Both the position numbers and the translations under genes were made by a program. 64,000 nucleotides of DNA from Escherichia coli (lineage in GTDB: Bacteria; Pseudomonadota; Gammaproteobacteria; Enterobacterales; Enterobacteriaceae): assembly GCF_011045215.1 (NCBI RefSeq), contig NZ_CP049201.1; one strand, given 5' to 3'. Below are positions 54,720-56,908 of this stretch, one piece after another; positions within the stretch are counted from its first letter, which is position 1; the number at the start of each line of letters is the position of its first letter. A model generated the notes under the pieces. The model ran no database searches. It saw nothing but the letters and a program-made list of their open reading frames with translations, and had not been told where the DNA came from.

Positions 54720-55004
54720 TATCAACTAAACCGCACGCTTCTCGCTCACAGCGGACCTTTAGCTCGTTCGCTTCGTGCCAGAAACCTTGGCAAAGCCATG
54801 GCTGATGTTATTCAGCTCCAGAAATTGGCTGCGTATAACAGCCCGCTTGCCGTTTGGCTTTTCAGGGCGATTTCAGTAATTGTAACTGCTGCGATGTTCC
54901 CCGAACACGTGGCAGAGTGTGACCACAGGATACTGCGCTTTGAGTTTCCCGATTAATGAGAATTGTTCGGGGAGTCTGGCATCAGGATCGTGGCAGCCTT
55001 CCTG
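54720..55004 (-). mobile_element. IS3-family (IS911-like) remnant, distal piece: orfA C-terminal codons and orfB N-terminal fragment
   Basis: Minus-strand translations ...KAATILMPDSPNNSH* (orfA end) and RLPEQFSLIGKLKAQYPVVTLCHVFGEHRSSYNY (orfB start) resemble IS911 OrfA/OrfB, with internal stops; boundaries approximate. Confidence 0.6.
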
Positions 55005-56585
55005 AGAAACTCCCGGTTCAAACACATAATTTAGGATCCTGCTGGAGAGAGTAACCCAGTGATTTTGCTCTTCGCTTAAGCCCATCGAGTACGCGACTAC
55101 GGTAGCGTTCTTCATAATAATCTGCGCCAGGATCGGCATATTTTTGACCATACTTCAGGGCATTGTAGAACAGTATTGCCAGTTTTCTTGCTGTTGCAGT
55201 GACTGCTTATGCTTTCCCGATACGTGATGATAATCGACGATAAAAAGCACCCAACGCGGTATCGCTCCGGCCAATTGTTGTAGCTGCCAGCCTGAGTGCC
55301 GCAGCAATTCGACTGGATGAACGCCGTGTTTTCGAGGACAGCACTTTTCCACCGGAGATCTTATTTCCCGGGGACAAACATAGCCACGAGGTAAAATGGC
55401 TCGCATCCGGCCAGCGGTTCATGTCAGTACCGCATTCTGCAATGAATTTTAGTGCCATATAAGGTCCGAACCCATGTATCTGTGTCAGATCTGCCCCCGT
55501 AATTTTCCAGAGTAATGGTCTGACATCAAAGGAAAGCTGATTGGGTTGCTTTGTACGATGTCTGGCGGAGGGCAATACCCCTTCCGGCTCTTCAATTCCG
55601 GTACTGAGCTGCAATAATGAGGTTTCGATTTGAGCATCACATTCGCGGATCTTTTCCTGGTAAAAATCGAAAAATGCAACCGACTGTTCAAGTGCAAAAA
55701 GATGCTCAGGCTGCCAGTTTCCTGTCAGTGCCTGCCGAAGTACTTCTGGCGTCTTTTTACATCTCACATCACGATACTGGATCAACATTGAAGGATCGCG
55801 CTCACCACTGACGATAGCTCTGACGATTGAAAGACCGGTAACGCCAGTGATATCCGATACTGCATGATGTAGTTGCACATTCATCTGCATCAGCGCCTTC
55901 TGCATATGTTGAATATGCGCAGCCCGGTATTCAGTCAGGCGTTCCCGTTGCCTCAGATAAGACCTGAGTACAGAAATATCGTGTTCAGGTCTGAAACTGG
56001 CACGGAGAAGACCAAATGAATGCAACTTCTGCAACCACTGGGCATCGTTGACATCGGTCTTGTGACCGGGAATATTTTTTGCGTCTCTTGCATTAACTAG
56101 GATCACCTTGAAACCAGCTGCTTCAAGGATTTCAAAAGCAGGCAACCAGTAAACGCCGGTAGACTCCATGGCAATGGTCGTAATGTGACAGGTTTTGAGC
56201 CAGTCAGACATCCGCTGAAGATCGCCAGTAAAACTTTGAAAAGTCCTGACAGGCCCGGTGTCAGCATCAGGCGGTACGGCGACAACGTGGAACTCAGCGC
56301 CAATATCAACGCCCGCAGCATGAGGATGGACAATAGACATTCGGGAGGATTTTTTCATGGAAATTTCCTTGCTCATTTTCGATGAACGAAGGAGGGGACG
56401 ACGGAGAAATTACCTTCCTGAACGGGATCAAAGTCACCACTGTCGGATCCGCCACAGTCCCTGAACCATGTTTTTTTACGGGGTCATACCACCAAAAGGC
56501 CGACGGCTGCTTCCTTCGCTAAATTATCCTGCCAACTTTTCCGGGGAGTTTCTGAGATTCAGGACGGGGTTTCATCCATGGACAG
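55005..56585 (-). mobile_element. IS110-family insertion sequence (about 1.58 kb) inserted inside the IS911-like remnant
   Basis: Intact IS110-type recombinase gene with non-coding flanks of about 227 bp (5') and 200 bp (3'); IS3-like sequence resumes on both sides; no obvious terminal inverted repeats; ends approximate. Confidence 0.6.
55207..56358 (-). CDS. IS110-family transposase/recombinase (DEDD N-terminal domain + Transposase_20 C-terminal domain)
   Basis: N-terminus SIVHPHAAGVDIGAEFHVVAV and C-terminal IHGFGPYMALKFIAECGTDMNRWPDASHFTSWLCLSPGNKISGGKVLSSKTRRSS; start taken at the ATG at 56358 preceded by AAGGAAA (the track ORF begins 6 codons upstream). Confidence 0.8.
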   Translation of the reverse strand: MKKSSRMSIVHPHAAGVDIGAEFHVVAVPPDADTGPVRTFQSFTGDLQRMSDWLKTCHITTIAMESTGVYWLPAFEILEAAGFKVILVNARDAKNIPGHKTDVNDAQWLQKLHSFGLLRASFRPEHDISVLRSYLRQRERLTEYRAAHIQHMQKALMQMNVQLHHAVSDITGVTGLSIVRAIVSGERDPSMLIQYRDVRCKKTPEVLRQALTGNWQPEHLFALEQSVAFFDFYQEKIRECDAQIETSLLQLSTGIEEPEGVLPSARHRTKQPNQLSFDVRPLLWKITGADLTQIHGFGPYMALKFIAECGTDMNRWPDASHFTSWLCLSPGNKISGGKVLSSKTRRSSSRIAAALRLAATTIGRSDTALGAFYRRLSSRIGKA

Positions 56586-56908
56586 TTTTTTAATATTTCT
56601 ATTTCAATATGTTGTGGTTTTTTCTTAAGCTCGCGTATTTCGAACTGTTCCGGGTTATGGGGGAGACTTTTGGCATTTTTCCTGTCGTTCATTTCGCAAC
56701 TGCTTTACCCATCGCGTCATGGTAGAAAGACCAACATCCATAGCACTGACCGCAGCCGCAACGGTGTATAGTTCTGGTCAATGACCAGTTGAGCGGATTC
56801 GCGTTTAAACTCTAAGCTGAAATTTCTTCTTTTCATTGAGACATCTGTATCGTTCTGAGGTGAGCATATCACTTCTATGCAGTTGGCCAAATTCAGTGTA
56901 CCACCGCA
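56586..56908 (-). mobile_element. IS3-family (IS911-like) remnant, proximal piece: left terminus and decayed orfA
   Basis: Minus-strand [24 protein letters not shown] resembles IS911 OrfA ([21 protein letters not shown]...), then frameshifts; an IS3-type terminus beginning TG lies about 70 nt upstream of the ATG. Confidence 0.65.

Follow-up and report, generated by a model that had tools for sequence, protein, structure and literature searches.

At positions 54789 to 56908 of the window, the 64,000-nucleotide stretch of Escherichia coli contig NZ_CP049201.1 analysed here, an insertion sequence (IS) of the IS110 group lies inside the remnant of an IS911-like element of the IS3 family. Very probably, this arrangement arose by bridge-RNA-guided insertion of the IS110-group element at an AA core dinucleotide within the programmed-frameshift heptamer of the IS3 element (A AAA AAG), and was followed by decay of both elements. 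What we observe directly are the junctions and their shared core, a nonsense mutation in the recombinase gene, the structure of the RNA, and the covariation and correspondences between its guides and the DNA.

Two IS911-like IS3 pieces flank the insert on the minus strand, at 56908-56586 and at 55000-54789. An intact IS3-family element of E. coli EC50 that is annotated with a programmed frameshift (L005) was used as the uninterrupted reference. In blastn comparisons, window positions 56904-56586 correspond to positions 4-328 of this reference (88% identity over 327 columns, E = 2e-116) and window positions 55000-54789 to its positions 327-541 (87%, E = 2e-72). In the intact element the two pieces adjoin each other and share exactly 2 nt (AA), which agrees with the reading of the initial annotation that an IS110-family element is nested in a decayed IS911-like IS3 element. 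The left piece ends with ...GAAATATTAAAAAA and the right piece starts with AAGGCTGCC. Given the continuation GGCT..., joining 56586 to 54998 rebuilds the slippery heptamer A AAA AAG of the IS3 element. The insertion point thus lies inside the A6G heptamer and parts orfA from orfB, at the A-rich frameshift site where the break had been placed before. Comparison with an uninterrupted IS3 element, which had been proposed as a check, sets the target site in the heptamer and limits the duplication to the AA core. The same annotation had raised the concern that the two IS3 pieces might derive from different elements; a rearrangement would then have brought them beside an IS110 element. This explanation was tested and rejected, and its probability is negligible: the pieces abut to the base in the intact IS3 element with an overlap of exactly 2 nt, they show similar identity to it (88% and 87%), and the same arrangement is found in other genomes.

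The IS110-family element, delimited by the 2-nt overlap of the IS3 matches, occupies 55001-56585 on the minus strand (1,585 bp). The core dinucleotide AA stands at both of its edges (56587-56586 and 55000-54999), and there is otherwise no duplication; insertion without target duplication and with a shared 2-nt core is characteristic of the IS110 group. The layout is also that of the IS110 group, with a long left end of 209-227 nt (from 56585 to the ATG of the recombinase gene) and 17 nt after the natural stop codon of that gene. In addition, the element carries a 10-bp inverted repeat, formed by AGAAACTCCC in the left end (56544-56553, minus strand) and GGGAGTTTCT near the right end (55014-55005). 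Its core AGAAAC/GTTTCT is kept among related elements, with the box located about 33 nt from the left end, and one covarying case was seen (GTAAC/GTTAC in L077). By comparison, the repeats reported for IS110-group elements measure only 2-3 bp.

The junctions are identical in four diverged E. coli copies, namely those of the window, of STEC346, of CFSAN061772 and of the sequence type 131 (ST131) relic in H105. Among complete E. coli genomes, 72 contain the IS3::IS110 composite and 545 contain parts of the IS110 element, with at most two places per genome matching the element. When copies from different E. coli lineages are compared, identity amounts to 89-93% in the IS110 part but to 67-86% in the IS3 flanks. 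This suggests that different IS3-family members were hit in separate events and that no single composite was inherited. Further copies illustrate how the arrangement varies. STEC346 (L002, 594-2102) and TUM10008 (L004, 591-2099) carry an intact IS110 copy encoding a 446-aa recombinase in the leuX island; the IS911 element that hosts this copy is also split downstream by a group II intron (ltrA), so that three mobile layers are stacked. In H105 (L007, 4001-4277) only the first 280 nt of the IS110 element remain, beside an IS3 orfA remnant and adjoining a truncated gene for a phosphotransferase system (PTS) ascorbate IIC component; about 400 genomes share this relic, among them ST131 strains like JJ1887. 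This relic is an orphan bridge RNA gene without a recombinase (84 bits at 4064-4202 with the covariance model described below).

Relatives were collected by a search with the 446-aa protein WP_172809872.1, taking one genome per species. The resulting 80 loci (49-69% identity) span Alpha-, Beta- and Gammaproteobacteria, Acidobacteria, Chlorobi, Planctomycetota, Wolbachia, cyanobacteria and others. At many of these loci the recombinase gene is preceded by an IS911-like OrfA, the end of which is about 240 nt away, and directly followed by OrfB on the same strand. Using iterated profiles, both IS3 halves were found at 32 of the 80 loci and at least one half at 50, the remainder being mostly short contigs or other targets. 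The left junction is uniform in the clade and reads ...GAGCGCGACATCCT AAAAAA/C..., where the slash marks the start of the element. Equally uniform is the right junction, ...GTTTCTTAGG plus AA, then GGCC... or AGCC.... The IS3 proteins on either side share only 22-52% identity with the IS911-like query, so that the conserved feature is the heptamer itself. The shared junction with OrfA or OrfB at 50 of the 80 loci indicates that the clade targets the IS3 frameshift site, with some members targeting elsewhere; sites outside IS3 that have nothing but the short motif in common with it also carry single elements (L008, L010, L024-L027).

A junction common to many genomes might alternatively have spread with a ready-made IS3::IS110 composite that was passed on by descent or with the island, moved by IS3 transposition or exchanged among IS3 copies through homologous recombination. 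E. coli PapRG-06-5 shares the window locus, so this particular copy was inherited, and the E. coli composites align as single blocks. As the general explanation, copying is highly improbable: it would not account for IS110 parts that are closer to each other than their IS3 flanks are, for a heptamer junction shared by other phyla in spite of the divergence of the IS3 proteins, or for the single elements at non-IS3 sites.

IS110 elements use a bridge (seeker) RNA that is produced from a non-coding end and whose two guides both include the core (PMC11208160). In the left end of the window element a bridge RNA core of 136 nt, comprising a target loop and a donor loop, is predicted at 56385-56520 on the minus strand from a covariance model and from covariation. 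It is closed by helix P1, in which 56520-56512 pair with 56393-56385. The left ends of 44 distinct clade members, cut out by motif-anchored extraction, were aligned and analysed with RNAalifold, which yielded four well-supported stems with compensatory changes; a dubious fifth stem of 2 bp (columns 89-90/141-142) was replaced by a GCGGA/UCCGC helix. Of the positions in the resulting 28-pair structure 94% are paired, against 40-48% when the partners are slid. Both sides change in 14 of the 28 pairs, and the covariation score is 0.297, against 0.04-0.10. P1 can be formed over 4-12 bp in all 44 sequences (at least 6 bp in 38 of them), the helix itself being unrelated in sequence among them. The covariance model built from this alignment gave a single match in the window, at 56523-56382 on the minus strand (115.8 bits). 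This match is expected because the window sequence belongs to the training set; independent support comes from the covariation and from held-out loci, the RNA being found directly upstream of the recombinase gene in 14 loci outside the training set. No match was obtained with the model in two intact IS3 controls. Covariation thus argues for a structured RNA with a target-matching and a donor-matching loop, and a predicted bridge RNA gene can be annotated at 56520-56385. A TAnnnT box that is conserved in the clade is located 6-10 nt upstream of P1 (GATAAT at window positions 56523-56528; TATGCT, TACACT and TAGACT in relatives). It could be a candidate -10 element of the bridge RNA promoter that a consensus scan does not call.

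The guides were assigned using the pairing rules of Durrant et al. 2024 (PMC11208160). The target loop is closed by the stem AGCCG/UGGUU. On its 5' side lies the right target guide UCGGCCUUUU (56494-56503, minus strand), which is complementary to the top strand AAAAGGCTG, i.e. the core and the right flank, with seven Watson-Crick pairs, one G-T pair and a closing C-G pair. Across 39 loci, right target guide and flank pair at 3.31 of 5 positions, against 2.64 (standard deviation 0.117) for shuffled combinations, a value above all 1000 shuffles; L035 provides a clear example (UGACU with AGTCA). On the 3' side of the loop, after a hairpin, lies the left target guide UAAAAAAAC (56470-56478, minus strand). 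It is identical to the top-strand sequence TAAAAAA/C, comprising the left flank, the core and the first base of the element, and would accordingly be expected to pair with the bottom strand. The left target guide equals the flank exactly in 52 of 66 loci and follows it from target to target: it reads GGCAAAC in L020 (flank GGCAAA/C), TAAAAAC in L016, GAATAGC in L077, TCATAGC in L079 and TTCATAG in the Wolbachia loci L082/83. The right flank also contains GGCTGC, to which GCAGCC (element positions 76-81) is complementary; this segment was rejected as a guide as it overlaps the conserved, covarying stem AGCCG/UGGUU.

The donor loop corresponds in a similar manner to the ends of the element itself. 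Its 3' side contains the left donor guide UUCAGGAAGG (56413-56422, minus strand), which reads as the right end of the element, TCAGG, plus the core AA (and GG of the flank). Among relatives, TCAGG, TTAGG, TTAGA or TTAAG at the right end is mirrored in this guide. Most loci have the core AA; L077-L079, L082/83 and L086 have AG, and the two loops always carry the same core. The right donor guide would be expected on the 5' side of the donor loop, UCCGACAG (56440-56447, minus strand). If the following base, U at 56439, is included, GACAGU complements A+CTGTC at the left end of the window copy; the complementarity is missing in STEC346 and in the clade, and GACAGU was not retained as the right donor guide. 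When RNA columns were compared with donor positions by mutual information, the signal came mainly from relatedness among the sequences. Both loops have a long left guide on the 3' side and a short right guide on the 5' side.

Alternatively, the insertion site might be picked by the protein or by a structural property of the DNA such as an A-tract, the matches between RNA and flanks being coincidental. The A6 target is of low complexity, so that short matches arise easily, and the right donor guide is fixed at only two bases. Yet the guides co-vary with flanks and element ends at targets other than A6, and changes of the core appear in both loops. Moreover, a chance 7-mer match (at most one mismatch within a 43-nt window) is estimated for about 6% of loci and was seen in nearly all divergent loci, and RNA guidance has been shown experimentally for IS621 (PMC11208160) and ISEc21 (PMC11187229). 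We therefore regard recognition by protein or DNA structure as a very improbable alternative to RNA guidance.

The recombinase gene of the window copy is truncated. It extends from 56358 to 55207 on the minus strand, with 383 codons between an ATG at 56358-56356 and a premature TAA at 55209-55207, before which the coding sequence ends ...FYRRLSSRIGKA; an in-frame ATG further upstream, at 56376, would give 389 aa. The protein matches NCBIfam NF033542 (IS110-family RNA-guided transposase) with 228 bits against a cutoff of 140. Downstream of the premature stop, the untranslated 3' part of the gene (55018-55206, minus strand) retains 62 conserved codons, AVTATARKLAILFYNALKYG..., and the natural stop TGA at 55020-55018. 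Codon 384 is TAA in the window and AAA in three related E. coli copies, and the STEC346 and TUM10008 copies encode 446 aa against 383 aa here. The initial annotation had taken this open reading frame to be intact, which does not hold. Through the nonsense mutation the protein loses its 63 C-terminal residues and with them 24 positions of the family profile (319-342 of 343): a full-length relative covers profile positions 2-342 and the window protein 2-318. The identical TAA is present in PapRG-06-5, where identity to the window is 99.9% in this region and two further mismatches occur. It is thus not a read error, and the mutation is real and inherited.

In the full-length E. coli relative, Pfam assigns PF01548 (DEDD, RuvC-like) to residues 15-159 and PF02371 (Transposase_20) to residues 291-373; both the DEDD domain and the Transposase_20 domain with its conserved serine, the hallmarks of the IS110 family, are therefore present. 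IS621 is the sole match of solved structure, with weak sequence similarity (E = 8e-7). The serine of the motif KISGG (S335), upstream of the premature stop, aligns with the serine of the ESG motif of IS621, which we take to be the catalytic S241. The stop aligns at about residue 294 of the 326 residues of IS621; hence the conserved last helix is lost and the aligned serine is kept. The copy lacks the full-length recombinase of an autonomous element. It might still be intact and active if the TAA were tolerated or read through, or if the last 63 residues were dispensable, and in this respect both Pfam domains and the aligned serine lie upstream of the stop while the element ends and the bridge RNA appear intact. 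Such activity is nevertheless very unlikely. Relatives have AAA at codon 384 and keep the frame for 62 codons more, the lost part is conserved in the profile and aligned with the conserved last helix of IS621, and no E. coli genome has more than two places that match the element. Decay of the recombinase gene remains the favoured reading.

The IS3 copy has decayed as well. Its left piece (56586-56908, minus strand), delimited by sequence and by blastn to the intact element, has a left inverted repeat that starts with TG at 56908 and an orfA whose ATG is located at 56836-56834; it closes with the A6 run of the heptamer at 56591-56586. The lesions in orfA comprise one 2-nt insertion, two 1-nt deletions and one 6-nt deletion. 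The right piece (54789-55000, minus strand; blastn 87%, tblastn to OrfB residues 1-72) consists of AA, i.e. the second copy of the core, GGCT..., the end of orfA and the first 72 codons of orfB. The IS3 copy thus ends at about IS3 position 541 of about 1,290 and keeps about 540 of the 1,250-1,290 bp or so of a whole element. IS3 similarity, supposed at first to reach 54720, stops at 54789; past this point blastn and tblastn detected no more of IS3 in the whole window, and neither the DDE domain nor the right inverted repeat was found. Because it is limited to the left end and OrfB residues 1-72, the IS3 copy is a remnant, in line with the earlier description of a scar with internal frameshifts that has lost most of orfB. 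Assignment to the IS911-like IS3 elements is based on the -1 frameshift at A AAA AAG that joins orfA and orfB, and on the left inverted repeat, orfA, heptamer and start of orfB being 82-88% identical to E. coli IS911-like elements. The copy differs from IS911 in its frameshifted orfA and in the loss of the DDE domain of OrfB and of the right one of the two terminal inverted repeats.

Together, these data suggest the following course of events. An IS911-like IS3 element would first have been resident in a genomic island. An IS110-group element, with its recombinase gene preceded by a bridge RNA gene of about 136 nt, would then have inserted by RNA-guided recombination. In this step the target loop would read T-AAAAAA-GGC, left flank and core in sense, core and right flank as complement, and the donor loop would read the junction between the element's own right and left ends. 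Exchange at the shared AA core would have put the element inside A AAA AAG without duplication beyond the core, and the insertion point predicted by this model in the A6G target of IS911 is after TTAAAAAA. The break would fall at the heptamer because the guides of the left-end bridge RNA spell out that site, an explanation that the earlier sequence reading had missed. Afterwards, the IS3 copy would have lost everything beyond about 540 bp and gained frameshifts, and the recombinase gene would have acquired the change from AAA to TAA, leaving both elements as presumed relics that are common to the window and PapRG-06-5. This mechanism appears well supported by the comparative evidence.

Several points weigh against this interpretation. 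No family of Rfam 15 matched within 54000-57500 at E-values up to 1, the left end folded as a single sequence is less stable than its shuffles (z = +2.2), so that the structure came from the comparison of relatives alone, and a consensus scan of the left end found no promoter or terminator on the minus strand. As the A6 target is common to most loci, the covariation seen for the left target guide is drawn from about ten divergent ones. Scanning all registers of the 5' side of the donor loop did not reveal a right donor guide beyond a GU that faces the core A and the element's invariant first base, C. Finally, we infer RNA guidance in this clade, as well as loss of function by truncation of 63 residues, from published work on IS621 and ISEc21; as the guide order is reversed, the mechanism of IS621 is carried over by analogy.

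Compared with IS621 of E. coli (Durrant et al. 2024, Hiraizumi et al. 2024), the window element shares a recombinase with DEDD and serine domains, a long left end with a two-loop bridge RNA, a 2-nt core in both guides and scarless insertion. The two differ in target (repetitive extragenic palindromic (REP) sequences for IS621, IS3 for the window element), in core (CT and AA) and in protein length (326 aa and 446 aa in full-length form), and the window element, unlike IS621, has an inverted repeat of 6-10 bp between its left and right ends. The order of guides is reversed in both loops, so that the architecture is not that of IS621; membership in the family is unaffected, and bridge RNA architectures are known to be diverse (Durrant et al. 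2024). Within the loops of the window element, the motif CCGU precedes the left guide. The RNA of IS621 presumably has CCGU before its left guide as well. Owing to this common placement of CCGU and left guide, the loop looks circularly permuted relative to IS621.

ISEc21 of E. coli (Siddiquee et al. 2024, PMC11187229) resembles the window element in being of the IS110 type, in having an upstream guide-RNA region and in its natural target within IS3-family transposase genes. This target differs from the orfA/orfB frameshift heptamer used by the window element, which is therefore not ISEc21-like. In ISEc21, the segment matching the top strand lies 3' of the segment matching the bottom strand, opposite to the window element. 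Specialisation on a sequence conserved in another mobile element is likewise seen in IS4321/IS5075 and the attC-targeting elements, which are also members of the IS110 family. In the literature they are assigned to the IS1111 group, with a guide RNA downstream of the gene and with terminal repeats of Tn21-family transposons or attC sites as targets. The window element, with its RNA upstream and a right end of 17 nt, does not have the downstream guide RNA and long right end of that group.

The relatives include further deviating cases. Plasmids of Cupriavidus necator UYPR2.512 carry five copies of one clade member outside IS3 (L024-L027, L037), at a repeated site that reads ...GGT(A/G)ACTAAAAAA/CC(A/G)TTTGT.... 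Their right target guide deviates, ACGAUUUU, and is partly complementary to the flank of the site; in L037 the right end is tandemly duplicated (CCGACGGAGGGCGTTTCTTAGGAA twice). Distant orthologues with 50-53% identity were found on a contig of a Lokiarchaeota metagenome-assembled genome (MAG; L087), in a Bacteroidetes MAG (L085) and in Nodosilinea (L086), the bridge RNA fold still being located upstream in each (38-55 bits). The archaeal assignment of L087 may be a binning artefact.

The nested elements of the window lie in a genomic-island setting. On either side, at 51865-54700 and 57243-63556, there are genes for DUF932, DUF905, IrmA-family and DUF4339 proteins, as well as for a 515-aa EAL-domain protein (57243-58790) and a 1,403-aa autotransporter (59345-63556). 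PapRG-06-5 (L001, 1592-5348) holds 3.76 kb that are absent from the window at 54047/54048, with flanks that are 99.4-99.9% identical; this segment encodes a YfjS/YafY lipoprotein, a WYL-domain protein and a GTPase.

A search of the literature, ISfinder lying outside its scope, found no description of IS110 elements at the IS3 frameshift site. A bridge-RNA-type IS110 element as such is known; it is the target specialisation of the clade for which no description was found. Tentatively, and short of regarding it as probable, we propose an undescribed IS110-group clade in Proteobacteria, Acidobacteria, Chlorobi, Planctomycetota and others that may be parasitic on IS3 elements. Its bridge RNA would be set to T-AAAAAA-G(G)C with an AA core, both loops being circularly permuted with respect to IS621, and the window copy would be its E. 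coli representative.

Locally, the finding concerns a pair of dead mobile elements, and its consequence is one of annotation, the IS110 gene being a pseudogene. More generally, the locus points to a widespread clade of bridge recombinases with the programmed-frameshift site of IS3 elements as natural target. IS3 elements cannot easily mutate this heptamer without losing their transposase, and the site is present in multiple copies and moves between genomes. Besides ISEc21, this would be a second, independent case of IS110-type elements living on IS3. Orthologues of 446 aa with an AA core and a different loop layout could widen the set of programmable bridge recombinases, and the clade could help to show which features of bridge RNA architecture are essential.

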